Notes: generated by a model not told the origin, from the letters alone. A DNA stretch of 64,000 bases from a virus (IMGVR_UViG_3300011442_000009:1-64000); one strand, 5' to 3'; positions 1,057 through 58,646 are shown, numbered from the stretch's first letter. Translations and numbers: made by a program.

Positions 1057-1085
1057 ACAGTCGAAGACCAAAACCGTGAGCGCTA
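1057..1085 (-). promoter_or_regulatory. putative phage late promoter TAGCGC-N16-CGACTGT
   Basis: Member of a spacing-conserved motif family with eight minus-strand copies. Confidence 0.6.
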
Positions 1086-1129
1086 CTGAATCTCACGGAC
1101 CGGCGGACCATGGCACTTCGTTTGGTCGG

Positions 1130-1176
1130 GGCTCTGAGAAACGAAAACGTGTTGGCTCTAGGGAACGAAAACGTGT
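1130..1176. repeat. tandem 23-bp direct repeat (period 24) in the divergent intergenic region
   Basis: ggctctgagaaacgaaaacgtgt / ggctctagggaacgaaaacgtgt, 20/23 identical. Confidence 0.8.
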
Positions 1177-1485
1177 CAGGTCCAATCGAACCGGCGAACC
1201 GACTGACCGGCGCACCACGATCCCTCATATTTCGTGCAAGTCGACCATTTCTTTACGGGCATCTTCCACCGGATACGATAGGCCAGCTCTACACTCCTGA
1301 TTATACCATGCACTACACATAACAACTATAATAAGTACTCGCACACTTCTGTGATGGTAAGTAAATAGTATAAACACAGTGGTGCTCAATTCTAATCGTA
1401 TTCAGGAGAGTATGCTGGGATAAAAATGGTCGAGTTGATGTAGAAAGTGTTGCTGACGCCTCGGGGATTGTGCGACTGTATCGGC

Positions 1486-2634
1486 ATGAGTAATACACAA
1501 AAACCAGCAGCTCTGACTGCTGAAGAAGCACAGAAACAAGCTCACGATGCCCTCCTTGGCGGAACTGAGCCCTTTAACGATGGGGAGACACCTGAGCGCA
1601 TCGCAGCTCGCAATCAGCGTGTCGCCGAATACATGGCAAAGAAAAACAGACAGCTCACGCAGCAGCAAGAGCGTGCAGCGTTGGTCGCCAGAACGCCGAT
1701 ATTGCGGATAGCCAAAGCGATTAGCGAATACCAGTTCTGGACTCAGCCCACCGAGGCCGAGATCAAAAGGTCGTACATTTTTAAGAGGTTCGACGACGTG
1801 CCGCGGCGGGATCCTGCGGGCAATCCAATGCTCGATGAGAACAAAGAGCCGGTGATGTATAACCCGGGGAAGGAAGCGCGGAAAGGATTCAACGTGGCGC
1901 TCATGCGCTACTGGCGCGCGCAGTTCTACGCCGGACGCGAAATGAACGTGCTGTGCACGCGGAGACTTTTCGACACCGTCGCGGTGGCCCGCATCGTGGA
2001 TCTCGCACGCTACATCTTTTGGAAGTACCGCAAGCCGGGCTGCCTCGGCATCGAGATATCAGATGCAGACCTGAACTTTTCGTTGCAGCGTGTCCAGAGT
2101 GACTTTGTGAGCGAAGAGGGCTTGGTGGGCCTATTGAATCAGTTCCGAGATGACCTGCTCGCACGAGGAATCTTTTCGGAGGATCCTACGAAGTATCTAG
2201 CGCCCGCCACTCGTGACCGCAAGAAAAGGTATTTTCAATCGACATCTCTCATGGCTGAAATGAAAGCTCTGAGAGCGAAGGTCGAGGAGTATACTGCACC
2301 GGCGAATCTCGCACCGGCGGTCGCCAAGCTCGATGAAGACCTGAAGGCGGCAGTGTCTCATTACACCACTGCGCACGGGGTCACAATCAACGCACTGAAT
2401 GAGCTGCAGAAAAAAGAGGAAGCGGACGCGAAGGCCGTCGTGTTCCTCACTAACACTGTGCTGCGACTTCTTACGCGCGTCGAAGAGCTCGAACGAAGGC
2501 CATCGCCAATGTTCATTCCTCCTGCTCCAATACTCGAGCCGGGTTACACTCCGCATTACCCGGCTCCGGGCTGGGAGACCACCTGTGAAAATAAATCAGA
2601 AAGTGTTGCTGAGAATCCGCCGAGTGTGCAATAG
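1486..2634 (+). CDS. hypothetical protein with C-terminal coiled coil
   Basis: Long ORF 1447..2634. ATG 1486 (MSNTQK) lies 6 nt after CGACTGT. Confidence 0.75.
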   Translation: MSNTQKPAALTAEEAQKQAHDALLGGTEPFNDGETPERIAARNQRVAEYMAKKNRQLTQQQERAALVARTPILRIAKAISEYQFWTQPTEAEIKRSYIFKRFDDVPRRDPAGNPMLDENKEPVMYNPGKEARKGFNVALMRYWRAQFYAGREMNVLCTRRLFDTVAVARIVDLARYIFWKYRKPGCLGIEISDADLNFSLQRVQSDFVSEEGLVGLLNQFRDDLLARGIFSEDPTKYLAPATRDRKKRYFQSTSLMAEMKALRAKVEEYTAPANLAPAVAKLDEDLKAAVSHYTTAHGVTINALNELQKKEEADAKAVVFLTNTVLRLLTRVEELERRPSPMFIPPAPILEPGYTPHYPAPGWETTCENKSESVAENPPSVQ

Positions 2635-2673
2635 TGCAAACTACGATAGGAACAACTGACAGAAAAAACTAAT

Positions 2674-3111
2674 ATGCAAAAACCGCTAGAATTAGAAAAG
2701 GGCAAGCAGATCATCGATTCAATCGACAGGCTTGCACAACTGCAGAGCATGAAGGATAAAACTCCTAACGATGCCGCGGAAGCAAACGGTCTCGTGGAGT
2801 TTTTGAAGAACGCTCTCTTCGAGCACGCAGCAAACCTCATGGGATGCTGGTATGCCGTCCGCACTGAGTATGAGCCACTGTGCAACGCTTTCGCTCATAT
2901 CGCCAGCCGAGCGGACAGCATCAACAGGCAGAAGGCCGCTATCGAGCGGAAGGTGCGTGGACAGGTCGAAGAGGCCGCAGCGCCGGTGATTACTGAGGGG
3001 GAGTTGCCTCCAGCGGATCCCATGGCCCCGGTAGCGGGGGAATCAAATCTGATTGCACCAGAAGGTGCGCCGATGATTCTCACGCCACAGTTCCGCAAAG
3101 GAAAGAAATAA
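2674..3111 (+). CDS. hypothetical protein
   Basis: 145-aa ORF with AT-rich start context; fits operon packing. Confidence 0.75.
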   Translation: MQKPLELEKGKQIIDSIDRLAQLQSMKDKTPNDAAEANGLVEFLKNALFEHAANLMGCWYAVRTEYEPLCNAFAHIASRADSINRQKAAIERKVRGQVEEAAAPVITEGELPPADPMAPVAGESNLIAPEGAPMILTPQFRKGKK

Positions 3112-3157
3112 TAGAACGCATCGCCGGAGGAGACTAACGGCGGCGCTAATCTTCAAA

Positions 3158-3247
3158 ATGGAAACTCAACTATGGATCGTGGCTTTCCCGTTGGTCGCAC
3201 TTTTTCTGGTGTTGGTCATCGGGGACATGATTAGGAGAGGCCGATAG
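3158..3247 (+). CDS. 29-aa single-pass membrane peptide
   Basis: Read manually: METQLWIVAFPLVALFLVLVIGDMIRRGR*. The stop is 2 nt before the next ATG. Confidence 0.5.
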   Translation: METQLWIVAFPLVALFLVLVIGDMIRRGR

Positions 3248-3249
3248 AA

Positions 3250-3813
3250 ATGATCACACCAGATGCCATCAAAGCCGAAGTCAGAGACACCCACGGCGTC
3301 CCGGGGATGCCCGCGGTTCTCCGAACGGTGATCGCAAGCATTCAGATTCAGTGCGTCGCGCAACTTGGGTATCCCGGAAGATGCGGCCTCGTTGAAGAGG
3401 ATTACGCCAAGGACAATTGTGCACGCCATATCTGGCATCAACTATACGGCGACCTCGACAAGGAGCTCTGCATCCTTTCGGACTACGTTTACTTCAACGC
3501 CGGACCGCAGCTCGATTACGGCGCTTTTTACGATCTCATTTCAAACCTCCGGAACAAAATCAGTTTCACATACCAACAAAAATTATGCCATCAAAAAAAT
3601 CAGCAGCTCGCAACACTCGAAACCTTTTCGACACGTCACACGGTGCCGGTAAAGGATCAAAACCTCGACCAGTGCAGCAGCCTGCCTATCGCGACAACTA
3701 TGACGCCATCGACTGGGGCCGCAGTGACAAACGAGGAAGCAGAGTCGTCCTCTTCCCCGGCTTCGACAACTTCGATAAATTCGGAGCCCGAGGCGTCTGA
3801 AGAAAAAAAGTAG
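3250..3813 (+). CDS. hypothetical protein (C-terminus overlaps the next gene)
   Basis: 187-aa ORF whose last ~76 codons are Ser/Thr-rich and overprint 3585..3800. Confidence 0.55.
   Translation: MITPDAIKAEVRDTHGVPGMPAVLRTVIASIQIQCVAQLGYPGRCGLVEEDYAKDNCARHIWHQLYGDLDKELCILSDYVYFNAGPQLDYGAFYDLISNLRNKISFTYQQKLCHQKNQQLATLETFSTRHTVPVKDQNLDQCSSLPIATTMTPSTGAAVTNEEAESSSSPASTTSINSEPEASEEKK
3585..3800 (+). CDS. small conserved phage protein (GKGSKPRP...YRDNYDAIDW motif)
   Basis: Internal ATG of ORF 3417..3800 with AAAAATT context. The motif is recalled from many small phage proteins. Confidence 0.6.
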   Translation: MPSKKSAARNTRNLFDTSHGAGKGSKPRPVQQPAYRDNYDAIDWGRSDKRGSRVVLFPGFDNFDKFGARGV

Positions 3814-3842
3814 TTGTGCAATTCAATAAACTCTGATATCCT
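3814..3842 (+). promoter_or_regulatory. putative host sigma70-type promoter TTGTGC-N17-TATCCT
   Basis: 17-nt spacing; preceded by AAAAGTAG as at 8917 and 29374; 9 nt before ATG 3852. Confidence 0.45.
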
Positions 3843-3851
3843 CTTTTCAAT

Positions 3852-4412
3852 ATGAAAAATCTACTGTCAAAATTAATCGGCCAAAAACAACCAATCGTAA
3901 CCTCACCCATGGTCAGCCGTGCTGAGCGCCGTCGCAAAACGGTGCACGCATCTAAGATTGCCCAGAACGTCGGAGTCGAAGAGCGCGACGGCATACCTAT
4001 CGAGGTTGCCAACTCGATGCTTTTCACTCCGGGCACGAAACTCACAAACGCGATGCGGAAGAACTGCCTCGCTGCTCGTGAGACTGTGTATATCTCCACG
4101 CTGGAAGGCAAGGAGTATAAGATCCGTCTCGCGGAGCGCGCACGGAAGGCGTCCGCAGCGCAGTTGGTTAAATGGGCTCGCCGCGTTGTGGTAGAGAGGG
4201 CCAAGGTCACCCGCGACTATATGAAGCTCTCCATCAAAAAGTCGCAGCTGGACCCTCTCAAGCTGCACGATATCGCCAAGGCGAACCGCGTGCTGGCGAT
4301 TATGGATGTCAATGCGCAGCAGCTCGACCTGCAAATGGCCAGCTACCGCACCGAAGCTGAGCGCCGCTTACTGTTCGTCGGCACACTTTTCGAACCAGTC
4401 GCGAGGGACTAA
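3852..4412 (+). CDS. hypothetical protein
   Basis: 186-aa basic ORF after a promoter-like site. Confidence 0.75.
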   Translation: MKNLLSKLIGQKQPIVTSPMVSRAERRRKTVHASKIAQNVGVEERDGIPIEVANSMLFTPGTKLTNAMRKNCLAARETVYISTLEGKEYKIRLAERARKASAAQLVKWARRVVVERAKVTRDYMKLSIKKSQLDPLKLHDIAKANRVLAIMDVNAQQLDLQMASYRTEAERRLLFVGTLFEPVARD

Positions 4413-4416
4413 TCTT

Positions 4417-6280: not shown

Positions 6281-6283
6281 GCT

Positions 6284-6847: not shown

Positions 6848-6851
6848 AGCT

Positions 6852-7639: not shown

Positions 7640-8034
7640 AAAAGCACAAAATTACCAGCGACGAAGCAGATACCACCTTGCGCGGCGAACCGTGGCCGAA
7701 GGCGACACCCGAAGCAATTGTGGAACGCCACCGCGCCATTGCGCTGCCGCCGGGAGTCCCTACCCCGGACACCAACTCACCCACGTGGGCATTCGTTTTC
7801 GCGTTCGCGTGCGTGATGGAATACAAGCTCTCCCAGAACCGGAAGAAGGGGGATTCCGCGGGCTGGCGGAAATTAGGAGCTGCGAAGCTTCAGGATCGTC
7901 TTGATGACGAGATTGAAGAGCTTGACGCCGCACTCTGGGATGGTGTAACGCCGGACAAGCGTGACGTTTTGCTCGAAGCCGCTGATGTAGCTAACTTCGC
8001 CCTCATGATAGCCGACAGTGTCCAACAACGGTGA
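7636..8034 (+). CDS. MazG-like nucleotide pyrophosphohydrolase
   Basis: RLDDEIEELDAAL...LLEAADVANFALMIAD matches the EExxEL...ExxDV MazG-fold metal-binding pattern. Confidence 0.7.
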   Translation: MKKHKITSDEADTTLRGEPWPKATPEAIVERHRAIALPPGVPTPDTNSPTWAFVFAFACVMEYKLSQNRKKGDSAGWRKLGAAKLQDRLDDEIEELDAALWDGVTPDKRDVLLEAADVANFALMIADSVQQR

Positions 8035-8722: not shown

Positions 8723-8920
8723 ATGACCAAGTGTGGGTGCCCAAAATGCGGTGGACAAGACTGCGAAGTTGTGCAGGATGAGATCGACATCGGCGTCGGC
8801 GTTCAGATCTGCATTCGTGGTTTCGAATGCACGAATTGCGGGCAGATCAGTCTGTGCATGGAATGCGGCCAGCCGGACTTCAAAGACCACGCAAAATGGT
8901 GCTCGCAAAAAAGTAGTTGA
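8723..8920 (+). CDS. small zinc-finger protein
   Basis: CPKC, CTNC, CMEC and HAKWC motifs. Confidence 0.7.
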   Translation: MTKCGCPKCGGQDCEVVQDEIDIGVGVQICIRGFECTNCGQISLCMECGQPDFKDHAKWCSQKSS

Positions 8921-8945
8921 GTGAAGCTCTGGGGCATGCTACATT
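8917..8945 (+). promoter_or_regulatory. putative sigma70-type promoter TTGAGT-N17-TACATT (leaderless gene follows)
   Basis: 17-nt spacing; ATG 8951 lies 5 nt downstream. Confidence 0.5.
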
Positions 8946-11468: not shown

Positions 11469-11497
11469 TTGCAATCCATCCAGCTATCTGCGACTCT
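11469..11497 (+). promoter_or_regulatory. promoter-like site TTGCAA-N16-CGACTCT
   Basis: Same geometry as the capsid-gene motif (TTGCGC-N16-CGACTCT); preceded by AAAATAGTTC. Confidence 0.45.
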
Positions 11498-11546: not shown

Positions 11547-11822
11547 ATGCACTCATTATCTGGAATCCGCGCCATGAACCGCAAAGCCGTTGCTCGTTAT
11601 AACCGCGCCGAGCAGCCGGAGTCTGAAACCTCCCGGCATTGCTCCTATCAGGGCAACCCCGAAGACGGGATCGTCCTTCACTCCGCCAAGCTGCGGAATA
11701 CTGCGTTCATCATCGGCAAAAAGGCCAAGCTGTTTCTGACCGAGTGGTTCGGGACCAACTCCGCCGACCGCCGGGACAAAATCGTGGAGAGCTATTTTCA
11801 CACCTCTCCTTCTGCCTCCTAA
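11547..11822 (+). CDS. hypothetical protein
   Basis: 91 aa after an AT-rich leader (AAAATTATG). Confidence 0.6.
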   Translation: MHSLSGIRAMNRKAVARYNRAEQPESETSRHCSYQGNPEDGIVLHSAKLRNTAFIIGKKAKLFLTEWFGTNSADRRDKIVESYFHTSPSAS

Positions 11823-16590: not shown

Positions 16591-16752
16591 ATGACGTGTC
16601 CGCGGTGCCATAGCACGCGCTCCCGGGTCCTCGATAAAAGGAATTCCTACGGAGGGATCCGGAGGCGGCGCTGGTGCTTCCAGTGCCACTTCCGGTTCAC
16701 GACTGAAGAGAAGATTGTATTTCTTAATAAGACGAAACAGCCGACTGTATAG
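16591..16752 (+). CDS. NrdR-like zinc-ribbon protein (53 aa, no ATP cone)
   Basis: Read manually: MTCPRCHSTRSRVLDKRNSYGGIRRRRWCFQCHFRFTTEE matches the NrdR N-terminus (MxCPxC..TRVIDSR..IRRRRxCxxCxxRFTTxE). Confidence 0.75.
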   Translation: MTCPRCHSTRSRVLDKRNSYGGIRRRRWCFQCHFRFTTEEKIVFLNKTKQPTV

Positions 16753-17019: not shown

Positions 17020-17139
17020 ATGAGTGAACAGATATATATCCCGCCTACCGAGAAGGTCATCAAACGCCTCTCAAAAACCAAAGAAACCAAGTGCATGAAA
17101 GCTTTTTATGTGGTCGCCAATTCCCGAAACTCCAAGTGA
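17020..17139 (+). CDS. small hypothetical protein (39 aa)
   Basis: Read manually: MSEQIYIPPTEKVIKRL...; AT-rich start; the stop abuts the next ATG. Confidence 0.35.
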   Translation: MSEQIYIPPTEKVIKRLSKTKETKCMKAFYVVANSRNSK

Positions 17140-17140
17140 T

Positions 17141-17383
17141 ATGCGAACGGCACACGGCAAAGCGATTCTCAAGGAACGTCTGGCAATCGGAGAACGGCTG
17201 GCCGCATGCCTCCAGCCCAAAATGACTCAGGAGGAAGTCGGTGAAATCCTCGGGGTCTCTGCTACCTACGTCTCCTACGTCGAACGGCTGGCGCTCTGGA
17301 AAATCGCTCACCGCATGCGCCAACTCGATTCAATCACCCACCCTCTTGACCGCATTCCCGAGCATGAATCAATCGCCACCTAA
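17141..17383 (+). CDS. helix-turn-helix DNA-binding protein
   Basis: MTQEEVGEILGVSATYVSYVERLALWKI (sigma region 4/XRE-like HTH). Confidence 0.75.
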   Translation: MRTAHGKAILKERLAIGERLAACLQPKMTQEEVGEILGVSATYVSYVERLALWKIAHRMRQLDSITHPLDRIPEHESIAT

Positions 17384-20030: not shown

Positions 20031-20094
20031 TATGAGATTTACTTGGAAGATAGTTCTTGATTTGTTTAAACGACCTGCTAGTCTTGATTCAGAT

Positions 20095-23622: not shown

Positions 23623-25784
23623 AAATATTCACACTCAAGAATCTTACGGACCGCGCCGGTGCATTCGACCGGGTTCCGTGGGATTTTAAATTTGCGTCAG
23701 AGACAATCTCCGCGGAGGTGCGCAAGAATAAAGTAAAGCGGCAGGCGTGGTGCACAGACCCCTCAGTCGAGCATTGTTTCTACTCCGCGTTTATCGGCGT
23801 CGCTGAGAGCGGGCGCGTGAACAAGGAGAACCCTCCGAAGCTCCTGTGGCTCTTCGTCGCGGACTACGACTGCGTGATTTCCGACGAGCGGATGAAGGAG
23901 GCAATCGAGCAGATGCCCATCAAGCCGACGTATATTGAAACCTCCATCGGAGGCAATCGCCGGTTGATTTGGGTTCTGGAAGAACCGATTTTGCTAGGCT
24001 CGAATGAGTTTGCGACTTTCCTCCTGCAGAAGGCTGAGACTTGGCTCCGGCTCAATCAGCTCCCCATGCTCGACCAACCGGCTTTCATCACCACTACCCG
24101 GCTGTTCTGCTGCGGTGACAAGTGGGAGCCCACCGGCTACGGCCCGGTGCCGCTCGCGAAGTCGCAAACATTTTTCTGCGACTGTGGGAAAGAGTATCGT
24201 TTCAGAAGTTACGATGAGATTTTGATTCCGCTGGACGTCGCTGCAGCAGAATTCGCGAAAAAGTATCCGGAGACTTTCTCGAAATGGCCCGGGGAATTCG
24301 TATTGGGAAGCCAAGGTCCCAGCTTCTGGGTGCCCGGCTCGGAGTCCGCTGGCTCTGCAATCGTAAAGACTGAGGGTATCTTCACGTTCGCAGCACACGC
24401 AGAGAAGGCGTTCTTTACTTGGGGTGACCTTCTCGGACAAGACTTCGTTAAACAATATCGCGACACCGCCATCGCCCGGGCCTCTCACGACATCTGGTGG
24501 GACAACCTGAAATTCCACCGCAAAATCGATGGGGAGTATGTGTCGATGACGAAGGAAATTTTCGTGAACTATCTCCGGGTAGACTGCGGCCTCTCCGAGA
24601 AAGCGGACTCCTCCGGCACATCACCTATCGCCCAGACCATCCAGCACATCTACAATCACCAGAGGGTCGCCGGGGCAGCTCCGCACGTTCCGCTTCCTAC
24701 CGGCATTATTTATTCTCAGGGAAAGCGCTGCTTGAACACTTACACCGGGCGCGTGGTGGAGCCCGCGACGGGAGTGCACCACTGGGGAGATCTGGGAATG
24801 TTCCCGTGGATCTCCAGAATGATCGACACACTTTTATACCCAAAGCTGCAGAAAGAGTATCTGTTGGCGTGGTATAAGTACTACTATCAGGGCATGCGAA
24901 AAAAGCTATGCCGTCCCGGACAGATTCTGATTATCCAAGGTCAGGCCGGTTGCGGAAAGTCACTGCTCAGTCGTGAGATCATCGGCCGGTCCGTCGGCGG
25001 GTTCTGCGATCCTTCCTCTTTCGTGCTTAACGGCAGCAATTTCAACTCAGAGCTTTTCGAGATTCCGCACTGGGCGCTGGACGACGATGCCCCTAGCGCA
25101 AGTCAGCACGCCGCCGGAGGAGCTCACGCAACGATGAAGAAACTCGTGGCGAATGACTTCTTCATGTATAGCAAGAAATACGAAGTCCCCAGCATGGTTC
25201 AGCGTGGCGGTCGGCTGATTGCTACGATTAATCCCGACGTGATTAGCCTCAAGTTGATTCCCAGTCTGGACGATGGAATGCACCAAAAGTTTTCGCTGTT
25301 CCGTTGCGCAGACTTCGGTCCCGAAAAAGACAACTTCACGTTCCCCATGGACCGCGAGGAGATCCAACGCATCATCGAAAGAGAGCTCCCGTATTTTCTG
25401 GCATGGCTCGAGGCGTGGGAAGTGCCGGACCATATTTCCCGCGGCGACGGCCGCTTCGGTTTCGCAGCCTACCACGATCCCTCCATGGCAGAAACCTCTA
25501 AGCAAGCCGGTTCTGCTGCGCCGTTCAAAGAGATTTTGCTGGAGACCCTGATAGAGCACTTCCGGCAAAATCCGGAGGATACGACTTGGACAGGATCCTC
25601 CAACCGGGTCATGCACCTTTTGGAAAACGATATCAGAAACCAGCTCGCGCTCCGCTCTTACAAACCCGAAAAAATCAATTCCAATCTCGAAACACTGTCG
25701 AAGGAAAATTTCCTCGGCCTAACAACCTCCTCAGATCCCAGCACCGGCATCCGCCTCTGGACCTTTAAAAAACCCACCGCATGA
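23619..25784 (+). CDS. primase-helicase (primase-like N-terminus plus SF3/D5-like NTPase)
   Basis: N-terminal ADYD...ETSIGG.RLIW primase-like motifs; Walker A GQAGCGKS; GSNFNSEL; ALDDD. Confidence 0.85.
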   Translation: MKIFTLKNLTDRAGAFDRVPWDFKFASETISAEVRKNKVKRQAWCTDPSVEHCFYSAFIGVAESGRVNKENPPKLLWLFVADYDCVISDERMKEAIEQMPIKPTYIETSIGGNRRLIWVLEEPILLGSNEFATFLLQKAETWLRLNQLPMLDQPAFITTTRLFCCGDKWEPTGYGPVPLAKSQTFFCDCGKEYRFRSYDEILIPLDVAAAEFAKKYPETFSKWPGEFVLGSQGPSFWVPGSESAGSAIVKTEGIFTFAAHAEKAFFTWGDLLGQDFVKQYRDTAIARASHDIWWDNLKFHRKIDGEYVSMTKEIFVNYLRVDCGLSEKADSSGTSPIAQTIQHIYNHQRVAGAAPHVPLPTGIIYSQGKRCLNTYTGRVVEPATGVHHWGDLGMFPWISRMIDTLLYPKLQKEYLLAWYKYYYQGMRKKLCRPGQILIIQGQAGCGKSLLSREIIGRSVGGFCDPSSFVLNGSNFNSELFEIPHWALDDDAPSASQHAAGGAHATMKKLVANDFFMYSKKYEVPSMVQRGGRLIATINPDVISLKLIPSLDDGMHQKFSLFRCADFGPEKDNFTFPMDREEIQRIIERELPYFLAWLEAWEVPDHISRGDGRFGFAAYHDPSMAETSKQAGSAAPFKEILLETLIEHFRQNPEDTTWTGSSNRVMHLLENDIRNQLALRSYKPEKINSNLETLSKENFLGLTTSSDPSTGIRLWTFKKPTA

Positions 25785-26461
25785 GCACCATCTTTGACCA
25801 ATTAGATTCCCGCGGTTTGACACAAAAAGAGACCGACATCGCCTCGCGCAAGGTCCGGTTCGGGAAACCGGCGGAGCGCGCGGAGGGCATCGAGTTTTTA
25901 GTCGTGCGCTCCCTCCGAGAGTCCGTGCTGCTCCTGCGCAAAATGAGCAAGGGGCGTCTGGATGACGGAGAGCTCATCAGCATCGCGTACAAAGCGCTCG
26001 AGAGATCTGCGCGCTCCTACAATCCCAGCAAGGGCAAGCGCTTTTTCTACTTCTCGAAAAAGGCCCTCCGAGGAGTCCTGATCGAACACTTCCGGGGCAA
26101 CGAGGTAGTGAAGCACGCCGAAAAGCCTGCGGCGTCTTGGGAGGAGGCCGTATCCACTTCCCGGCCGCGGAAGAGCCATCCGGATCTCGAGGATCCGGAG
26201 ACCACGAGCGAGCTCGAGGGCCGGAGCGACGCAGACTTCTCGACGATCTATCAGAAGGAAGATTTCGAACAGGTGACGCGGGCAATGAAGTGTTTAAACC
26301 ACTTCGAAAAAGCCATTGTGCTTTTCATCCGCGCTACTGGCTACTCCTTCCGGGAGACCGCCGAAGAATTCGGTTGCTCTCGCGCGTGGGTCGGACTTTG
26401 CTATAACCGGGCCATCGAAAAATTACGTGCCGTTTTGGTCCCGGGGCGCGATAGTATTTAG
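25781..26461 (+). CDS. phage-encoded sigma-70 family RNA polymerase sigma factor
   Basis: Region 2 ELISIAYKALERSARSYNPSKGKRFFYFSKKALRG; region 4 LNHFEKAIV...GYSFRETAEEFGCSRAWV...RAIEKLR. Confidence 0.85.
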   Translation: MSTIFDQLDSRGLTQKETDIASRKVRFGKPAERAEGIEFLVVRSLRESVLLLRKMSKGRLDDGELISIAYKALERSARSYNPSKGKRFFYFSKKALRGVLIEHFRGNEVVKHAEKPAASWEEAVSTSRPRKSHPDLEDPETTSELEGRSDADFSTIYQKEDFEQVTRAMKCLNHFEKAIVLFIRATGYSFRETAEEFGCSRAWVGLCYNRAIEKLRAVLVPGRDSI

Positions 26462-27688: not shown

Positions 27689-28877
27689 GGCTCTCGGACG
27701 ATCTTACCGGTCAGTCACTGGCAGGGTGCTGGGCCTTCCAAGCGCCGCACCGGCGACTCCCAAACCGTTGGAACACGAGCCCGACTACACGGCGGACCAA
27801 GAACGCGCCGCTGCGATGCACTGGCAGACCCGTTACAAACAACTCAAAGGCAAGTATGAAAAAATCCTCCATGAGAGCACTGTCATTGACTCTCTCGTTA
27901 CTGATATCCGGAGCCTCGCTCCCACCAGCTATTCCTCCGCACCGGCGGTTATCAAAAACCGCACCACGTCGGGAACTTCGCAGAGTGCCCTGCTACTGTT
28001 TTCCGACACCCACGTGGGGCAAACCATTTCGCCTGACCAGACTCTTGGCTTCGGGGAATATAATTTTTCGGTGTTCCTTTCTCGGCTCAAATACCTCGAA
28101 GAGTCGGTCATTTCCATACTTGAGAACCATACGACTACGAAGATCGACGAGCTCGTCATCGCAATGCTTGGAGATATGCTCCATGGAGCGCTTAACCACG
28201 GAGCAGAAGCAGACCAGCAGGTCACCCTCTTCGAACAGTATTACTCCGCCGGGCATGCTATCGCTCAGTTCTTCCGAAATCTCGCACCCCATGTTCCGGT
28301 CCTGAAAATTAAGACCGTCGTGGGAAACCACACCCGGTGGATGAATCAGCACAAAATGCCGGCGGGGAATCGATTCTCCAATCTCGATATGTTCCTCTAC
28401 GCCCTCACGGAGGCGCTCACGAGCGACATCAAAAACATCGAGTGGGACCTGAACAAGCAGCCCTTTTCGGTGTTCACAATTCAGGGGCATGTTATCCGCG
28501 CCAGCCACGGTGACCATCTCCGGGGAGGCGATAAATCTTTAGGTATCCCGAATCACGCAATCGCCCGAGAGATCTCGGCGACGACACAATTATTCGCTAA
28601 GCACGGGCAGCAAGCACCGCATCTATACGTCTGCGGACACCTCCACAGGTCGATTCAACTCCCGCACGCGCTGGGAGAAGTAATTGTGAACGGCGGATTC
28701 CCGGGTCTAGACGGGTATGCGCTGGCCGGTAATTTCAACCCCATAGATCCTACGCAACGTCTGCTCTTCGTGCACCCGAAATACGGCCGGACTGCCGAGT
28801 ATACCCTGTCTTTGAAGTTTGCTGAGAAATTCGAGGAACCCCCCTACGCCATTCCGGGTAATTTTGCTGCGGCATGA
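27600..28877 (+). CDS. calcineurin-like metallophosphoesterase with N-terminal HTH
   Basis: WSPEET...GKTNQEIAEALGRS HTH; SDTH, GDMLHG, GNH, HGD and GHLH motifs. Confidence 0.85.
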   Translation: MKNKNPWSPEETNRLLKLRSEGKTNQEIAEALGRSYRSVTGRVLGLPSAAPATPKPLEHEPDYTADQERAAAMHWQTRYKQLKGKYEKILHESTVIDSLVTDIRSLAPTSYSSAPAVIKNRTTSGTSQSALLLFSDTHVGQTISPDQTLGFGEYNFSVFLSRLKYLEESVISILENHTTTKIDELVIAMLGDMLHGALNHGAEADQQVTLFEQYYSAGHAIAQFFRNLAPHVPVLKIKTVVGNHTRWMNQHKMPAGNRFSNLDMFLYALTEALTSDIKNIEWDLNKQPFSVFTIQGHVIRASHGDHLRGGDKSLGIPNHAIAREISATTQLFAKHGQQAPHLYVCGHLHRSIQLPHALGEVIVNGGFPGLDGYALAGNFNPIDPTQRLLFVHPKYGRTAEYTLSLKFAEKFEEPPYAIPGNFAAA

Positions 28878-29392
28878 AAGAGATTCCGCTAACTCAAGGA
28901 AAAGTCGCATTAGTTGACGACGCTGATTTCGAGTTCCTCAATCAGTGGAAATGGTACGCCATGCTAAACAAACGGGTTTGGTATGCCGTACGAGACGTCC
29001 GGACTTCTGACGGGAGCCGGAGGCTCGAGCAGATGCACCAGATACTCATACCGTCGCCCCAAGTCGACCACCGAGATCACGACGGGTTAAATAATCAACG
29101 CGCCAATCTTCGAGCATGCTCGGTTCGCCAAAACGGGGCCAACAAACGGAGATGGTTATCAAAAACCACGAGCCGATTTAAAGGGGTATTTGAACGCAAA
29201 AACCGAAGAACTGGTGAGCCTAACGGTCAATACCGGGCACAGATACGCGTCGACTATAAACTGCATAATCTGGGGACATTTGGCACGGAATATGAAGCTG
29301 CTCAGGTGTATGATGCCGCCGCAAAGGAGCATTTTGGGGAATTCGCCCACCTCAATTTTCCTGAAAATAGTTCTTGCACTTTGACCGGCTAG
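28874..29392 (+). CDS. HNH-AP2 homing endonuclease
   Basis: VDHRDHDGLNNQRANLR..S..QNGAN plus AP2 domain (YRAQI...LGTF..E.EAA..YD.AA...FGEFA.LNF). Confidence 0.9.
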   Translation: MKEIPLTQGKVALVDDADFEFLNQWKWYAMLNKRVWYAVRDVRTSDGSRRLEQMHQILIPSPQVDHRDHDGLNNQRANLRACSVRQNGANKRRWLSKTTSRFKGVFERKNRRTGEPNGQYRAQIRVDYKLHNLGTFGTEYEAAQVYDAAAKEHFGEFAHLNFPENSSCTLTG

Positions 29393-29402
29393 GCCCCATA
29401 CT
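29374..29402 (+). promoter_or_regulatory. putative sigma70-type promoter TTGCAC-N17-CATACT (leaderless uvrD-like gene)
   Basis: 17-nt spacing, upstream AAAATAGTTC, ATG 6 nt downstream. Confidence 0.5.
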
Positions 29403-32739: not shown

Positions 32740-32768
32740 ACAGTCGTGGCTAATCGCGTTCTTCGCGA
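32740..32768 (-). promoter_or_regulatory. putative late promoter TCGCGA-N16-CGACTGT
   Basis: Motif family member with a weaker upstream hexamer. Confidence 0.45.
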
Positions 32769-40766: not shown

Positions 40767-40795
40767 ACAGTCGTCTATCCTGCCACTGGGTGCCA
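40767..40795 (-). promoter_or_regulatory. putative late promoter TGGCAC-N16-CGACTGT
   Basis: 5 nt upstream of the giant gene ATG. Confidence 0.6.
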
Positions 40796-44280: not shown

Positions 44281-44729
44281 AGGTTTTTCCTAACAATGGT
44301 GAATGACTTTCGATAGCCCAGCCGGTCGTACATCTGCGCCATCTTATCTGGCGAAAGTTCCATCGAAAAACCGAACTGAACCATCGTGCATCCTGCCGCC
44401 TTGCACTCAATCTCGAATGCTTTCAAGAGAGTCAAAGGCGCTCGAGTGTGCCTCCACTTCGGAGACACTACCCAAACAAACTCATTGCCGTAGAGCTCAC
44501 CCGTTTGCGGATCCTCTTGAATCGTTCCGATCAAGTATCCATGGAGCTCTCCGGCCTTATCAAAATACCCAAAAATTCGAACCCCGGAGGCGTCCCCGAG
44601 ATCTTTCCAAAAATTCACCATCGGCTCGACCCGTACCGGGGGATCCTGCCATTCGATCTCTGGACACTCGACGCCCATCTTTCGAAGGGCGTCCTCAATC
44701 TCTTCCGGCGTAACTAATCGGCGAACCAT
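44277..44729 (-). CDS. GNAT-family acetyltransferase
   Basis: EFVWVVSPKWRHTRAPLTLLKAFEIECKAAGC...MYDRLGY. Confidence 0.8.
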   Translation of the reverse strand: MVRRLVTPEEIEDALRKMGVECPEIEWQDPPVRVEPMVNFWKDLGDASGVRIFGYFDKAGELHGYLIGTIQEDPQTGELYGNEFVWVVSPKWRHTRAPLTLLKAFEIECKAAGCTMVQFGFSMELSPDKMAQMYDRLGYRKSFTIVRKNL

Positions 44730-44736: not shown

Positions 44737-44765
44737 ACAGTCGCCGAATCATGTCGGCGGCGCTA
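44737..44765 (-). promoter_or_regulatory. putative late promoter TAGCGC-N16-CGACTGT
   Basis: 7 nt upstream of ATG 44729. Confidence 0.6.
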
Positions 44766-51381: not shown

Positions 51382-51720
51382 TTAGTAGGATTCTTTGTCT
51401 TTGCCGAAAGCTTTTGCCAGTGCGTCGAGAGCATCCTCCGCGGAGGTGTCGCGCTTCGAAGGGCGGTTGTCTTTCTCGCCCTTCACTTTTTCAATCGAAA
51501 GAACTTCGACGGTGCATGTGTACCGGCCTTCCCGTACGTCCTCGGTCTCGCGCACAGTCCGGAACTTGATCACCATTTCTCCTTCCTCCGGGAGCTCGAG
51601 CTCCTTGTCGCCGGAGTAAGTAAATTCAGGGTAATAAACACGGTCCCGGTCGTTGATCGGGGTCGCGATGCTGCCGCCGCCAAATTCGCTAGCACGGCCG
51701 AGATCTATTGGAGTACTCAT
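51382..51720 (-). CDS. hypothetical late protein
   Basis: 112 aa; ATG lies 8 nt after CGACTGT. Confidence 0.7.
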   Translation of the reverse strand: MSTPIDLGRASEFGGGSIATPINDRDRVYYPEFTYSGDKELELPEEGEMVIKFRTVRETEDVREGRYTCTVEVLSIEKVKGEKDNRPSKRDTSAEDALDALAKAFGKDKESY

Positions 51721-51724
51721 AGTA

Positions 51725-51765
51725 TAGAACAGTCGGAGGTTACCGTATCTCGCGCCAGTTAAAAG
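51725..51765. repeat. 41-bp direct repeat, copy 1 (contains late-promoter motif 51729..51757)
   Basis: 37/41 identical to 53364..53404. Confidence 0.85.
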
Positions 51766-53341
51766 TAGCCATCGCCGCGGTCGTCCCGCCGATCCCAGTA
51801 ACCAACAAGGAAAGAGTGCCTAGAGAACGCGCCACCCCGGCGGCGTCCAGTGTAATCGGATATCTATTGTTCAGCGACACGGAGGGAGCGCTTCGACTGC
51901 CTCCATTGGCCGCGACATACCCACTTTGGAGAACAATAGATGGGGAACCGCTGATCGTCCCGGCAGTGTTAAACTCCGTCGTCGAGTAGCCCGTATTCAC
52001 GTTAGTGAATGCGGTAGTGCCGCTTATCGCCTGCCCCAGCACAAGTTCCCACTGAATTGGTCGGTCTCCGGTGCCGGTAATCTCTATCGATTCCAGTACG
52101 AACTTAGACCGAGTTGTTATAGAATTGAAAGTCGCTCTCGGGCGGACCGAGAGGAGATGCACGCGCGTACCGTTTCCTGCTGTGGCAGCACCGGAGATCG
52201 AAAAGGAGAGCCCGGGTATGTCTTCTTGCCCTCCGTTTGAAGAGACGCTGGCGCATACAAAACGCATCGTGGTCGAGACCGTTCCGGTGCAAGTCATCCC
52301 GGCTCTGATCGGCAGGTTCGCGCTCTGGATGTATGGGAAGGCCACTGTATTCGCATGGCGAAACTCGTGCACCGGAACTATGCGGCCGTCGATGTCAAAA
52401 CCGACGCGAACCCGGCCGGTATACAGCGCTTGAATATCGATGACAAAAATCTGAGCCTTTGTGAGATCGAGAGTCTCGCCGCTAATCCCAGTTCCGTCAA
52501 GTTTGTCGATGTTCCAATTGGCTTTCGTGACTATCTGGTTGCCGTTTCCGGTGCCGGACAGCAGGGCCAACTGAACCGTAGTGCCGTCCTGCTGGAGCTC
52601 TACCCCGTTCACCCCGTCGGAGTATCCTATAAACTTCAAGGTGTTCACCACGGCCTCTATAAAATTGAACGTAACAAAAACCTCGAGAGACCTGCCCGGC
52701 TGATACCGGAAGCACTCGAAGCTTTGAAGAAAAGATTTACCTCCGGTCGGCGTGCTCGCAAAGGTCATGAGCGCGCTTCGGTTCGTGGAATCGTGGGCCA
52801 CGGTCGCGCCGGTCCCGAGAACTATTGTCTCATACACGAGAGGCGGGATCTCGTAAGTGAGTTGAGAATCGAAAACATACGTTGGAGTCGCTACTCTGAG
52901 CCGAGAGAACGCGTCGAGCGTGTCCGGAATGGTAACCGTGACCGGGTCGGTTATGTGGCTAATCGGCACCTCTGCGGCAATCGATACTGGGACCGTTCCG
53001 GCTATCGATACCGGGGCCGCTACCGACACCGGGACCGTTCCGGCTATTGATACCGGGGTCGCGATGCTGCTAACCGCGACCGGATTCGTGATGCTACTCA
53101 CTGCGACTGTTCCGCCCACCGTAGCCAAAATCGGTTGCGGAAACGATACCGGCAGCGGAGCATCGGCCGTTACGTGCCACAGAGCCCCGGATGGATCCGG
53201 GAAAACTCCCAGAGGCTGGGTGATGTTTACGTTATCGAAGTGGATTGCGTCAATTGGTATGCCCTCGTTTAAACGCGTTAGAACTTTTCGAAGCAGGTTG
53301 TTGTCTGAATCTGCCTGTTTGTACGTAGTGTCTGTTGCCAT
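51740..53341 (-). CDS. putative virion decoration/fibre protein with Ser/Thr/Val/Pro repeats and a lectin-like domain
   Basis: DAFSRLRV...FRYQPG...WNIDKLDGTG.SG.TLDLTKAQIF.ID...GRVRVGF pattern; 14-aa repeats VSIAGTVPVS. Confidence 0.65.
   Translation of the reverse strand: MATDTTYKQADSDNNLLRKVLTRLNEGIPIDAIHFDNVNITQPLGVFPDPSGALWHVTADAPLPVSFPQPILATVGGTVAVSSITNPVAVSSIATPVSIAGTVPVSVAAPVSIAGTVPVSIAAEVPISHITDPVTVTIPDTLDAFSRLRVATPTYVFDSQLTYEIPPLVYETIVLGTGATVAHDSTNRSALMTFASTPTGGKSFLQSFECFRYQPGRSLEVFVTFNFIEAVVNTLKFIGYSDGVNGVELQQDGTTVQLALLSGTGNGNQIVTKANWNIDKLDGTGISGETLDLTKAQIFVIDIQALYTGRVRVGFDIDGRIVPVHEFRHANTVAFPYIQSANLPIRAGMTCTGTVSTTMRFVCASVSSNGGQEDIPGLSFSISGAATAGNGTRVHLLSVRPRATFNSITTRSKFVLESIEITGTGDRPIQWELVLGQAISGTTAFTNVNTGYSTTEFNTAGTISGSPSIVLQSGYVAANGGSRSAPSVSLNNRYPITLDAAGVARSLGTLSLLVTGIGGTTAAMATFNWREIR
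52989..53058. repeat. 42-bp-period coding duplication
   Basis: gggaccgttccggctat[ct]gataccgggg twice, 27/28 identical. Confidence 0.8.
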
Positions 53342-53363
53342 AACTTACCTTTCCTCCGAGCAT

Positions 53364-53404
53364 TAGAACAGTCGAAGGTTACCGAACCTTGCGCCAGTTA
53401 AAAG
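53364..53404. repeat. 41-bp direct repeat, copy 2 (contains late-promoter motif 53368..53396)
   Basis: 37/41 identical to 51725..51765. Confidence 0.85.
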
Positions 53405-53586
53405 AGAGGAGTGACTTGCGTAGGGACGAGGGTGTCAGGAGGAAGATTCCCGGAATCGTCCGGGTTCGTCACCGCGAGCGTGTAGCCCGGAGGACGAATG
53501 GTCATAGCGCCGCCACGCGTTCCTTCGCAGGGTCCTGCGAGGACGTGATCGACATCTTTGATCAATGGAAAATTGCTACCGTTCAT
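53398..53586 (-). CDS. small hypothetical protein
   Basis: 62 aa; starts 1 nt after the previous stop and has its own promoter-like motif at 53610..53638. Confidence 0.55.
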   Translation of the reverse strand: MNGSNFPLIKDVDHVLAGPCEGTRGGAMTIRPPGYTLAVTNPDDSGNLPPDTLVPTQVTPLF

Positions 53587-53587
53587 T

Positions 53588-54640
53588 TTAGGTTACCCGT
53601 ACCCACGTAACAGTCGTACGAGGAGCGATCAGGCGACAGTCTTTCCCGAAGGACTGAAGCTCGATAGTCGTGTAGTTGCTCGTGGTCGTTACTATCGCAC
53701 AGGAGGAAATCGGGACGTACGAACCGCCGGAAAATCCGGTCAGCGCGACGAAAGACCCGGGAAGGAACTTTGGATCCTGCGTAGGATCCGGAGAAGTGTT
53801 GTTTGCGGGGTTTGTGGTATCGACGAGCCCCGCATAAACCGTGGGATTGCTCCCTGTGGCGTACACCATCGTGACGAACCGGAAAAGATACTTCCCGGCA
53901 GAAGTCAGTCTAAACGTCACTTTCCCAGTATCTGCGCTAGGAGTGAAATTCACCAGAGTCGCCGCGGCCGTCGGTACGAAATCTGTCTGATCGTCCGCGC
54001 CGACGAAGCTGCCGGTTTGCTGTGTGGGACCCGCAGACAGCGTTTCCCCATTTTCGCCGTCGATGCCCTTGTCCCCCGGAAGTCCTTTGTCTCCCTTGTC
54101 TCCAGTAAGCCCGAGATCGCCGTGTGGGCCTTGCAGATCCTGTCCTTTAGGCCCGGTGGGTATGATCAGCTTACCGGCCGCTATGACGCCGCTTGCGCCA
54201 AGCTGGGGCTGTACTAGGGTCACCGTGAGGTTCCCATAATCGTCCGCAACGAGGACCTGATACCACCCGGAACTTCCCACGAAAATTATTTCGTTGACCT
54301 TGATCACCGGGTTGAAAATGGTGCGTAGGATGAACGGCGTGCTGTTCGTGGGTTGGGTGAAGGACGCGATTGAAACCGTGTAGCCGTTGAACCCGTTCAG
54401 GCCCATGAGCCCCGGCTCGCCTTTGGGGCCGCGCAATGCTTCAATCTCCTCACGCAGGAGGCGCAGGAAATAACAAGCCACTCCTTCGTCCGCGCTGCGC
54501 GGGTCGTCCGGAAGACCGGTATCGAGACTGCACGGAAGCTCCCACGCCACTATCCCGGGAGAAACGTCTACCTTCGTAACGCCATCCCCGAACAACGAGA
54601 AGGTGAAATTGTTTACTTGGCTTTGAAGTGATTCGGCCAT
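53588..54640 (-). CDS. collagen-repeat fibre protein (paralog B)
   Basis: Two Gly-X-Y tracts; N-domain W.LPC.LDTGLP...E..ACYFLRL shared with 54640..55761. Confidence 0.75.
   Translation of the reverse strand: MAESLQSQVNNFTFSLFGDGVTKVDVSPGIVAWELPCSLDTGLPDDPRSADEGVACYFLRLLREEIEALRGPKGEPGLMGLNGFNGYTVSIASFTQPTNSTPFILRTIFNPVIKVNEIIFVGSSGWYQVLVADDYGNLTVTLVQPQLGASGVIAAGKLIIPTGPKGQDLQGPHGDLGLTGDKGDKGLPGDKGIDGENGETLSAGPTQQTGSFVGADDQTDFVPTAAATLVNFTPSADTGKVTFRLTSAGKYLFRFVTMVYATGSNPTVYAGLVDTTNPANNTSPDPTQDPKFLPGSFVALTGFSGGSYVPISSCAIVTTTSNYTTIELQSFGKDCRLIAPRTTVTWVRVT
53610..53638 (-). promoter_or_regulatory. putative late promoter TGTCGC-N16-CGACTGT
   Basis: Motif family member embedded in the 3' end of 53588..54640. 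Confidence 0.45.
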
Positions 54641-55761: not shown

Positions 55762-55764
55762 AAA

Positions 55765-56701: not shown

Positions 56702-56707
56702 TGGGGG

Positions 56708-57028
56708 TTATATGGCCTCGAGCCACTTTCGCAAAAGGTCATTGAATGTGTCGGCCGGTTTGGGGGTGCCCCCCGTGAGTACGACAATTTTTCTCACGAT
56801 TGTGTATATCAAGTCTCCCGGCGAAAAGGTCCCGCCGTACGTTACCAAAATCTTTCGGAGGATGTTGCTTCGAAGATCTCCCGGGGAAAAAGTGCCGCCC
56901 CGGGCAACCAGAATTTTTCGAAGTAAGACGTTCTCCAGATCGCCCGGTGAGAAGGTCCCGCCATAGACGGCAAGAATTTTCCTCATGACGGTCGAGTCAA
57001 GGTCGGCCTGTCTGTAGGTTGTAGCCAT
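56708..57028 (-). CDS. tandem 19-aa repeat protein (GDL...LRKIL..GGTFSP), possible capsid decoration protein
   Basis: About five repeat units; immediately downstream of the capsid gene. Confidence 0.75.
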   Translation of the reverse strand: MATTYRQADLDSTVMRKILAVYGGTFSPGDLENVLLRKILVARGGTFSPGDLRSNILRKILVTYGGTFSPGDLIYTIVRKIVVLTGGTPKPADTFNDLLRKWLEAI

Positions 57029-57045
57029 GGTTTTTTAAAGAGAAT

Positions 57046-57078
57046 GGGGGCTGTCGGCTGTTAGGCCGGACAGCCCCC
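57046..57078 (-). terminator. hairpin after the capsid gene (partial terminator or processing site)
   Basis: gggggctgtc/gacagccccc stem; followed on the minus strand by ATTCTCTTT. Confidence 0.55.
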
Positions 57079-57132
57079 AAGGGTTTCCCTACCCCGATGA
57101 CCCGAGCGAGTCACCGAAAGGGTGTGATTTGA

Positions 57133-58449
57133 TTACAGCGTCGGATAACCGGGTCCGATCACAGGAGTCTCGTCGTCACCGCAAACACCAATGTTGGTGA
57201 AGCTGTCCGCACCACTGTAGGAGCTGGAGTTGGACGACGCGCAGGCGATCAAGCCGAGATCAGCTTGGCAGCGCTTGTAGAGGATCGGGATGATCCATTG
57301 AGGGCGCAGCGGGCGATAGGCCCGGGTGATCTGGTACTGGTGCCAGCCGAAGTCGCCGCGGCTATTGCACTCGTTGTCGATGACATAGTGCCATTCGAGC
57401 TCACCCATGTGCAACTGCGGGGAGAACTTGAAGCTGCCTTCGCCGACATACTTCTCGGGCACGAGGCGCTCGAAGCTTCCGTCGGCAATCAGCACGCCGA
57501 CTTCGTAGTCAGCGGCCAGCCAAGCGGGATTCGGTTTCGCAAAGGCCACGCCCCGGGAAGGGTTCGCGACGATCACGACTGGGTCAACCAGTGCGAGGGT
57601 GCCGTCTTCGTTGAAGCCAGTGGCCCGGAGGGGACGCTGATCAACACCGAAGGCAATACCACGGTAAGCCGGGCTCTGCTCGAAGGAGTAGGCCGTCAAG
57701 GTCTGCTCGCCGAGTTTGTACCCGCCAGTGGTCAAGGCAACCATGACGTTCTGCACGCCGACTTCCGAGCGAAAATACTCGATCTGGTCGGTGCCGCCGA
57801 TGAAGCGGAAGTGAGGCATTCCCTCGCTCTGGCTGTACCACTCGCCGAAGAGCACCTCTTTGAGGTACCGGGCAATGTAGTGCAGCGCCTTGAAGGTCAT
57901 CGGACCCGTAGGCAACAGCGGGGCGAACTTCACGCCGAGATCTGTTTCCAGACCGCCGGTGAAAAGCGAATTGAAATCGTAGTTCGCGTTGGCCGTGAAC
58001 TTCGAAGCGGATCGCAGGTACAGCTGGGCGCGGATGTCCGCGTTGATGTACTGGGTGACCAGTTTCTTCATGGAGTCTTCCGCCGTGCCGTACGAGCTCT
58101 TAAACGCGGCGTACCCCTGCTTGACGCAGATGTTCGGGCCGCGGCCACGGAAGCTCTCGAGGCGGAGCGTGAATTCGACAGTGTCAGTCAGATCCTGATT
58201 ACCAGTCTGGCCGCAAATGTCGGTATCGCACACGAAGTTGGGGATCGCCAGTGAATCACCGGGAGCCGCCTGCATCTGGACGATGCTTCGAATGGCGTCA
58301 GACGTGCCGGACGGGAAGGTCCCGCCGCCGATGACGTTCATGTATACGCTGTTTGCAGCGACCGCCTTGGCCACTTGACCAACAATTCTGTTGGTGTCCT
58401 TACTGGCTATGTCGCTGATATCAGAGGGGTTATCGCAAAAAAATGCCAT
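57133..58449 (-). CDS. major capsid protein (putative)
   Basis: 438 aa with strongly biased codons, its own promoter and a downstream hairpin; HK97-like length and pattern; first structural gene after the glycosylation cassette. Confidence 0.75.
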   Translation of the reverse strand: MAFFCDNPSDISDIASKDTNRIVGQVAKAVAANSVYMNVIGGGTFPSGTSDAIRSIVQMQAAPGDSLAIPNFVCDTDICGQTGNQDLTDTVEFTLRLESFRGRGPNICVKQGYAAFKSSYGTAEDSMKKLVTQYINADIRAQLYLRSASKFTANANYDFNSLFTGGLETDLGVKFAPLLPTGPMTFKALHYIARYLKEVLFGEWYSQSEGMPHFRFIGGTDQIEYFRSEVGVQNVMVALTTGGYKLGEQTLTAYSFEQSPAYRGIAFGVDQRPLRATGFNEDGTLALVDPVVIVANPSRGVAFAKPNPAWLAADYEVGVLIADGSFERLVPEKYVGEGSFKFSPQLHMGELEWHYVIDNECNSRGDFGWHQYQITRAYRPLRPQWIIPILYKRCQADLGLIACASSNSSSYSGADSFTNIGVCGDDETPVIGPGYPTL

Positions 58450-58617
58450 AAACGTGATGTGGTTAAACTACGGGTGACTACATAAATCCGGGTCACTTGT
58501 CCGGGCACAGAAAGTTTTCCCCTGTGCGGGAGTTATGTTTGTCGCCGTAGGCCAAACAGCGGAGAGCTCAGGCCGTTCTCGGTGAAGTCAAACCGAGCAT
58601 CTTTTAGACTTCAGAAG

Positions 58618-58646
58618 AGAGTCGAAGGGAATCGAAAAAAGCGCAA
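58618..58646 (-). promoter_or_regulatory. putative late promoter TTGCGC-N16-CGACTCT for the capsid gene
   Basis: Motif family member, followed by a ~165-nt structured leader. Confidence 0.55.

Follow-up and report, generated by a model that had tools for sequence, protein, structure and literature searches.

A bipartite motif ahead of gene starts in an uncultured phage, a probable promoter family for the phage's own sigma factor

The virus genome IMGVR_UViG_3300011442_000009 carries, upstream of a series of its genes, a bipartite motif (T[GAT]GC[GA]C-N16-CGACT[GC]T) that is probably (at roughly 0.7) a promoter family used by host RNA polymerase together with the phage's own sigma factor, encoded at 25781-26461. 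The stretch analysed (the window) comprises the first 64 kb (64,000 nucleotides, nt) of a 75,330-bp IMG/VR virus record rated 100% complete. We infer recognition of the motif by the phage sigma factor, the transcription start sites and the timing of expression from sequence. Base composition per codon position divides the genome into two opposed gene arms, a plus arm spanning ~1486 to 31935 and a minus (late) arm that begins at 938, wraps past the end of the record and continues to 32019; non-coding DNA makes up only 6.2% of the genome.

Results

Enrichment and orientation of the motif

The exact pattern occurs six times in the window, against 0.03 expected, a count that none of 100 shuffled sequences reached. 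A first-pass annotation of this DNA had listed eight minus-strand copies, and every one was found where it had been placed, with exactly 16 nt between the two blocks; two of them (TCGCGA at 32740-32768 and TGTCGC at 53610-53638) are one-base variants of the pattern. With one further site outside the window (genome 67842-67870), the six exact matches and two near-matches bring the strong sites to nine, all on the coding strand and directly upstream of gene starts. The CGACTGT block by itself is not enriched in the window (12 copies, 7.9 expected). Across the whole 75,330-bp genome the coding strand holds 13 of 16 copies, nine of which have T.GC or a one-base variant of it upstream at N16.

A weight matrix scored the nine strong sites at 17.9-22.1 bits, separated from the remaining hits, and its 18 best hits all fell on the sense strand. 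The top score in ten shuffled genomes was ~17 or more in five and never above 19.6, with at most one hit of strong-site strength. A motif-blind dyad count over upstream regions placed GCGC-N16-CGACT among the top dyads. The motif departs from chance, runs in the direction of the genes and is located at gene or operon heads, and the signal resides in the bipartite combination, its strand and its position, not in CGACTGT alone. A scan with the E. coli-type sigma-70 consensus gave no enrichment, and a sigma-54 reading of the TGGCAC/TGGCGC block (TGGCAC-N5-TTGC) was ruled out, there being no TTGC at N5.

The annotation had also assigned the motif to the heads of late genes. All minus-strand copies do precede gene starts, and the plus-strand copies are as it described them (1450-1479 with N17, 11469-11497, and CGACTGT at 16742); however, the motif is not strictly late, since conserved copies also stand before the first gene of the plus arm (1450-1479) and before a small gene of that arm (16742).

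Conservation in relatives

Single-protein searches and searches with a close sigma alignment, run on viral and genome contigs, returned no related loci; relatives were reached through a wider sigma alignment (A3) and through the presumed capsid protein (57133-58449), for which at least 108 relatives exist in IMG/VR. The phage is a member of a large uncultured family of at least 108 contigs, and the sigma gene was present in 11 of the 11 near-complete family genomes searched. Profile searches with the sigma factor retrieved 209 cluster representatives at E <= 1e-10, and a 79%-identical sigma factor is encoded on a 74-kb contig (P0002). A tblastn search of the sigma protein against 50,697 phage records found no match, nor did nucleotide and protein searches of GenBank phage records with the sigma factor and a 24-kb stretch. 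The family is poorly annotated by current family libraries.

Sigma proteins 45-64% identical to that of this phage are encoded on five metagenome contigs (L001-L005), and the full genome of the L005 phage (G006; sigma 45% identical) is the nearest complete relative. Eight orthologous positions in G006 retain T.GC..-N16-CGACT[GA]T, the divergent pair at the arm junction among them; the leader behind its capsid-gene promoter measures 164 nt, compared with 168 nt in this phage. Ahead of the last late gene, T[CA]GC..-N16-CGACTGT-6/7-ATG is found in three genomes with unrelated spacers. In these sigma-carrying relatives (G006 at its eight positions, L004 and L005) the motif is kept at orthologous positions while flanks and spacers diverge.

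The phage sigma factor

The sigma-70-type gene proposed at 25781-26461 (plus strand) is real. Its product of 226 amino acids (aa) comprises a sigma2 domain, a disordered linker of ~46 residues and a sigma4 helix-turn-helix; it matches the sigma-70 superfamily model TIGR02937 over residues 40-217 with 49.7 bits (cut-off 42.9), as well as PHROG sigma families, and all 15 of 15 close homologues also exceed the TIGR02937 cut-off. The Pfam model Sigma70_r2 gave an E-value of 0.002, under the gathering score, and Sigma70_r4 was borderline (23.7-24.7 bits, cut-off 24.1); the region 2 signature RFFYF-KKALRG is conserved. In the AlphaFold model two helical domains are joined by disordered residues 108-153, the top Foldseek matches are all sigma factors in holoenzyme complexes (sigma32, sigmaS, sigmaA), and profile matches in the PDB include WhiG (with region 4), SigK, FliA and RpoH. 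By curated model and fold the protein belongs to the sigma-70 family, and it is predicted to bind core polymerase. No sigma subfamily model came near its cut-off (the FliA/WhiG, SigK and ECF models all gave 18-30 bits), which makes it an unclassified two-domain sigma factor. The start of its gene overlaps the stop of the primase-helicase gene, an arrangement that may couple translation of the two.

A small open reading frame (ORF) at 17108-17383 (plus strand) encodes a sigma4-like helix-turn-helix (Sigma70_r4 23 bits, weak match to PHROG sigma family 351). It overlaps the start of the longest exonuclease reading frame, is conserved in L005 and could be a second regulator.

Start-codon geometry and predicted leaderless mRNAs

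Seven of the 16 CGACTGT copies have the first ATG of a genuine ORF 5-9 nt downstream, against a background of 0.024 per position. These close-coupled copies are at 1473 (plus strand), 16742 (plus strand), 32740, 40767, 44737, 51729 and 67842; at four of them no other start codon precedes this ATG in the ORF, and at the remaining three the sole earlier candidate is a GTG within the motif or just ahead of it. Because so many copies abut the ATG, their transcripts would be leaderless, and the sequence arrangement at the seven sites implies leaderless mRNAs, a kind of transcript common in phages (PMC5312081). Copies with longer leaders carry Shine-Dalgarno (SD) sequences where leader length permits (GGAGG at 53341; AAGGAG before genome 70857). 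The absence of an SD sequence was discarded as a test for leaderless starts, since SD use is weak across the whole genome and its absence is uninformative.

A separate, host-type promoter class

The TAnnnT boxes at 3837, 8940, 20079 and 29397, which the annotation had set apart from CGACTGT, form a promoter class of their own (class I, TTGnnn-N16-17-(TGn)TAnnnT with an ATG 5-10 nt downstream), distinct from the phage-type sites (class II). TTGnnn-N16-18-TAnnnT with an ATG at 4-11 nt was found nine times, versus 1.1 in shuffles, and the arrangement occurs in five of five genomes examined, often as TAnnnT-N6-ATG with GC just before the ATG. On the plus strand, class I sites lie at 3814-3842 (TTGTGC-N17-TATCCT, 9 nt to the ATG at 3852), 8917-8945 (TTGAGT-N17-TACATT, TG-extended, 5 nt to an ATG), 20057-20084 (TTGATT-N16-TAGTCT, 10 nt to an ATG) and 29374-29402 (TTGCAC-N17-CATACT, 6 nt to the ATG at 29409 of the UvrD-like helicase gene; TTGCAA-N17-TATTAT-6-ATG in the L004 ortholog). 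Another, on the minus strand at genome 71825-71853, stands in the late arm ahead of a serine recombinase gene. No host-type promoter lies closer upstream of the polymerase-primase-sigma gene run than the site at 20057; the sigma gene follows 5.7 kb downstream of it, with no strong class II site, and none with a -35 block, in between.

From their sequence, class I sites are predicted to be leaderless host-type promoters. Classes I and II share the same distance to the start codon, which puts CGACTGT in the place of the -10 box; this common geometry is expected of a -10 element within CGACTGT and of mRNAs without leaders.

Phage-type sites along the genome

The plus arm encodes a helicase, an exonuclease, a family-A DNA polymerase, a primase-helicase, the sigma-like gene, a RuvC-like resolvase, a second exonuclease and a UvrD-like helicase; the minus arm encodes virion and tail proteins, a polyvalent protein of 2622 aa and many proteins without a family match. 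The arms meet at a divergent pair of class II sites. On the minus strand, TAGCGC-N16-CGACTGT at 1057-1085 (22.0 bits) heads the late arm, 118 nt from the ATG at 938, and its positional counterpart in G006, also TAGCGC-N16-CGACTGT, likewise diverges from the plus-arm site. On the plus strand, TTGCTG-N17-CGACTGT at 1450-1479 heads the plus arm, 6 nt from the ATG at 1486 of a 382-aa protein, and its G006 ortholog reads TAGCGG-N16-CGACTGT-7-ATG. Between these two sites, at 1139-1180 (plus strand), lies a direct repeat of ~15 nt (GAAACGAAAACGTGT twice, 22 nt apart) that could be an operator.

The other plus-strand copies are less regular. TTGCAA-N16-CGACTCT at 11469-11497, 49 nt from the ATG at 11547, is weaker (13.1 bits, within shuffle range), and no counterpart was found in the 97 nt of L005 sequence upstream of the ortholog. 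The CGACTGT of the site at 16720-16748 is accompanied by a poor -35 block (TTTCTT) and lies 9 nt from the ATG at 16758 of a 59-aa protein, the L005/G006 ortholog of the site being TAGCGC-N16-CGACTAT-7-ATG. A degenerate CGATAGT at 26449-26455 precedes the RuvC-like gene (GTG at 26461) by 5 nt. In most relatives an intact CGACTGT stands at this place: in L001, L003 and L004, where the sigma C-terminus overlaps it in one or other of two frames (RLS* and SDCLK*), the box is preserved, and in L005 it is retained before the RuvC gene despite another gene between box and sigma.

Along the minus strand, TCGCGA-N16-CGACTGT at 32740-32768 lies 7 nt from the ATG at 32732 of the last late-arm gene (237 aa); the orthologous sites read TCGCGT-N16-CGACTGT-6-ATG in L004 and TAGCCC-N16-CGACTGT-6-ATG in L005/G006, again with unrelated spacers. 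TGGCAC-N16-CGACTGT at 40767-40795 is 5 nt from the ATG at 40761, the first start codon of the ORF for the 2622-aa polyvalent virion protein, and TAGCGC-N16-CGACTGT at 44737-44765 is 7 nt from the ATG at 44729 of a 150-aa acetyltransferase-like protein (G006: TAGCGG-N16-CGACTGT-6-ATG). The head of the tail-gene run, a 112-aa protein starting at 51720, follows TGGCGC-N16-CGACTGT (51729-51757) by 8 nt; the G006 ortholog is TTCCGG-N16-CGACTGT-7-ATG, and a box with an ACT core occupies this position in 12 of 14 genomes. An identical pair of blocks, TGGCGC-N16-CGACTGT at 53368-53396, stands 26 nt from the ATG at 53341 of a 533-aa virion protein, with a GGAGG Shine-Dalgarno sequence in the leader. 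The two copies are near-identical over ~45 nt (51729-51775 and 53368-53414, minus strand; CTTTTAACTGGCGC...CGGTAACCT.CGACTGTTCTA), which suggests a recent duplication of a promoter cassette that flanks the 533-aa virion protein gene.

Still on the minus strand, TGTCGC-N16-CGACTGT at 53610-53638 (19.6 bits) lies 23 nt from the ATG at 53586 of a 62-aa ORF, and TTGCGC-N16-CGACTCT at 58618-58646 lies 168 nt from the ATG at 58449 of the presumed capsid protein (438 aa, the most conserved late protein; G006 TTGCGG-N16-CGACTGT). The ninth strong site, beyond the window at genome 67842-67870 (minus strand), is 7 nt from the next start. Weaker candidates outside the window lie at genome 70906, 71074 and 68120, the first of them behind a terminator-like hairpin and ahead of an 82-aa gene with an SD sequence. 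The hairpin (GCCAGAGG...CCTCTGGC followed by a T run) is directly upstream of 70906, at genome 70940-70975 (L009 ~7940-7975, minus strand), and would mark an operon boundary before the unannotated 82-aa gene and a 671-aa protein.

Lineage-specific boxes and sigma divergence

When 5-mers were counted in the 16 nt ahead of first ATGs in 15 syntenic genomes, the most enriched ones shared an ACT core in 13 of the genomes; G003 has the core at orthologous sites only, and G015 has it weakly. The box is CGACTGT in this phage and G006, CGACT[GT][TC] in G003, GACTAT in G012, GCACTAA in G004, ACACTGT in G011, G007 and G010, TGACTATT in G001 and G008, and GTAACTA in G002 and G014. Orthologs of the genes for the 710-aa, 237-aa and 112-aa proteins carry a box in ~12 of 14-15 genomes (counted from the table), and genes internal to operons mostly lack it at their ortholog positions. 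The full ortholog table was preferred to an automated ortholog scan, whose narrow window undercounts boxes; repeats rich in GC or in A/T dominated the whole-genome dyad counts made in the relatives.

The sigma factor is by far the fastest-diverging syntenic core protein seen in the 15 related genomes (G000-G015). Its identity between genomes is 21-51% (70% in one pair), versus 83-92% for the capsid protein, and each of the four closest sigma pairs shares a box variant (CGACT, GACT, CACT and ACACTGT). The -35 block is T.GCGC in this clade versus TTGnnn/TTGACx in other lineages, and the recognition helix of sigma4 differs between the same two groups (CSRAWVGLCYNRA versus TRSAIQRTHxRA); the difference in the helix may underlie that in the block. 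A tentative picture, to which we give somewhat less than even odds, is of a soil-phage family with fast-evolving matched sigma-promoter pairs, in which the -10 box drifts with the sigma factor and both promoter classes yield leaderless mRNAs. If it is true, the family would hold a natural set of mutually orthogonal sigma/promoter pairs, and promoter specificity, not the structural genes, would be the fast-moving part of the phage genome.

Other features of the family

A 172-aa protein encoded at 28874-29392 (plus strand) has up to six scattered, non-syntenic homologues per genome in relatives G001-G004 (in G001 at 3530, 43904, 46227, 50100, 57026 and 60432), and by this distribution its gene behaves like a mobile gene of the homing-endonuclease type. 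The DNA polymerase ORF is ~300 aa longer in L002 (1191-4097) and L004 (3651-6542) than here (968 and 963 versus 659 aa), with homology resuming at residue ~613-617, a pattern suggestive of an intein, an extra domain or a similar insertion in those two polymerases.

Discussion

In the arrangement that we favour, T.GCGC would be the -35 element, read by the sigma4 helix-turn-helix, and CGACTGT would hold the -10 element, read by sigma2; in the hexamer GACTGT, A2 and T6 of a standard -10 box are retained. Since the sigma gene sits among the replication genes and behind a host-type promoter, a cascade would follow: the early genes, and with them the gene for the phage sigma factor, would be transcribed by host sigma, and the phage factor would then fire about a dozen promoters, spaced every 2-9 kb along the structural arm and also serving a few genes of the other arm. 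At the seven close-coupled sites transcription would start on the AUG or immediately beside it, so that the mRNAs would lack a leader, and the host-type promoters are arranged alike.

Several observations weigh against this arrangement. Every relative carries both the sigma gene and the motif, so the family offers no natural knock-out for dependence of one on the other. Sites under ~15 bits fall inside the score range of shuffled genomes, the co-variation of sigma factor and box comes from few lineages and was judged by eye, and two orthologs of the giant gene with a supposedly leaderless start begin with GTG or TTG, unusual for leaderless translation. A host alternative sigma factor with this specificity may exist, and the class II -35 block resembles ordinary TTGACA in several relatives, so that the two classes differ mainly in the -10 box and there is room for a host sigma factor with a phage cofactor. 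That such a host factor (an alternative sigma, or the primary one with a small phage protein) reads a real promoter family, the phage sigma having another role, nevertheless seems unlikely to us. The TTGACA-like -35 blocks of G003 and G004 and the two -10 positions kept in GACTGT would suit it; the box, however, differs among closely syntenic phages (capsid 83-92% identical) and tracks the sigma lineage in the four closest pairs, each genome has ordinary TAnnnT promoters as a separate class, and a core sigma gene would be left without target promoters.

A further reading takes the two blocks as the binding site of a phage activator or repressor, and the sigma-like protein as a DNA-binding regulator of the RinA/ArpU type. 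Proteins with a sigma4-like helix-turn-helix can be activators, the RinA family is reported to activate late operons (PMC3152322), and this phage has a second small ORF of that kind at 17108-17383; yet the sigma2 domain of the sigma factor is complete and bears the region 2 signature, both domains of the protein align with holoenzyme-bound sigma factors, and at the seven close-coupled sites only 5-9 nt are left between motif and ATG, with no separate -10 box there, which makes such a regulator very improbable. We give still less credence to a role in RNA (as a processing site or translation signal), or to an N4-type hairpin or T7-type promoter. CGACTGT often adjoins the ATG, and hairpins are possible in three of nine spacers, but the distance to the ATG varies from 5 to 168 nt while the spacing of the blocks is fixed at 16 nt, and no common hairpin emerges (z-scores +0.5 to -2.8; three of nine sites fold better than shuffles, in no common register). 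T7 promoters contain CGACTCACTATA, so that CGACT is shared with them. No candidate for a single-subunit RNA polymerase (PF00940) was found in the genome, weak evidence given that control genomes were likewise silent, and the large ORFs had no match to such a polymerase in Pfam or PHROG. The N4-type and T7-type readings were rejected for want of a conserved hairpin and of a polymerase candidate.

Transcription from promoters of the phage's own sigma factor, the reading we prefer, would make the transcription programme of this uncultured family readable: host-type early promoters, a sigma gene within the replication run and some twelve sigma-type promoters across the structural arm. Leaderless starts, as predicted here, would fix the true start codons of several genes, including that of the 2622-aa virion protein, and hint that the host translates leaderless mRNA well. 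The series of matched sigma and box variants could supply orthogonal sigma/promoter pairs and could show which sigma2 residues read the bases beside the ACT core.

Bacillus phage SPO1 (gp28, gp33/34) and T4 (gp55) likewise encode sigma factors that redirect host core polymerase in a temporal cascade, although their promoter consensus sequences are unrelated to the motif described here; T4 gp55 needs only a -10-like box and the sliding clamp, and the hosts of these phages, Gram-positive or enterobacterial, rely on SD-led mRNAs. Cellular ECF (group 4) sigma factors resemble the phage protein in size, in having sigma2 and sigma4 without region 3, in a spacer of ~16 nt and in a CG-containing -10 element. 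In contrast to them, it reaches the cut-off of no ECF subgroup model and its motif has neither the AAC -35 nor the CGT -10 signature; no anti-sigma partner turned up, and none was searched for.

Escherichia phage phiEco32 has a comparable layout, with a genome of ~77 kb, two opposed arms, a (middle) sigma gene among replication genes, and sigma-dependent promoters in the structural arm and part of the other. Its ECF-like gp36 acts on middle and late promoters with a single element, tAATGTAtA (PMC4331800, PMC8948821), and lacks a recognizable region 4, whereas the promoters here are bipartite and the sigma factor has a region 4.

The closest tested analogue is SaPh711_gp47 of Salmonella phage 7-11, which serves eight late promoters of the form GTAAtg-N16-aCTA with starts 6-9 bp downstream (Viruses 2022, PMC8948821). 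Shared by the two systems are a phage-encoded two-domain protein of the sigma-70 family, a bipartite promoter with a 16-nt spacer and a downstream block containing CTA/ACT, about eight copies before late genes, opposed early and late arms and early genes under host sigma; the 6-9 bp to the 7-11 starts also match the 5-9 nt from box to ATG here. No specific homology of the sigma factor to SaPh711_gp47 was detected (hhalign probability 0.5% and 0.1%), so the resemblance is one of function, not of family membership. The consensus (T.GCGC/CGACTGT) differs, as does the many promoters' abutment on the ATG, which predicts leaderless transcripts. Taken together, these sequence comparisons support the view that the phage would be a new example of a known strategy, the phage sigma/promoter regulon, to which it would add predicted leaderless starts and co-varying variants across a whole family.

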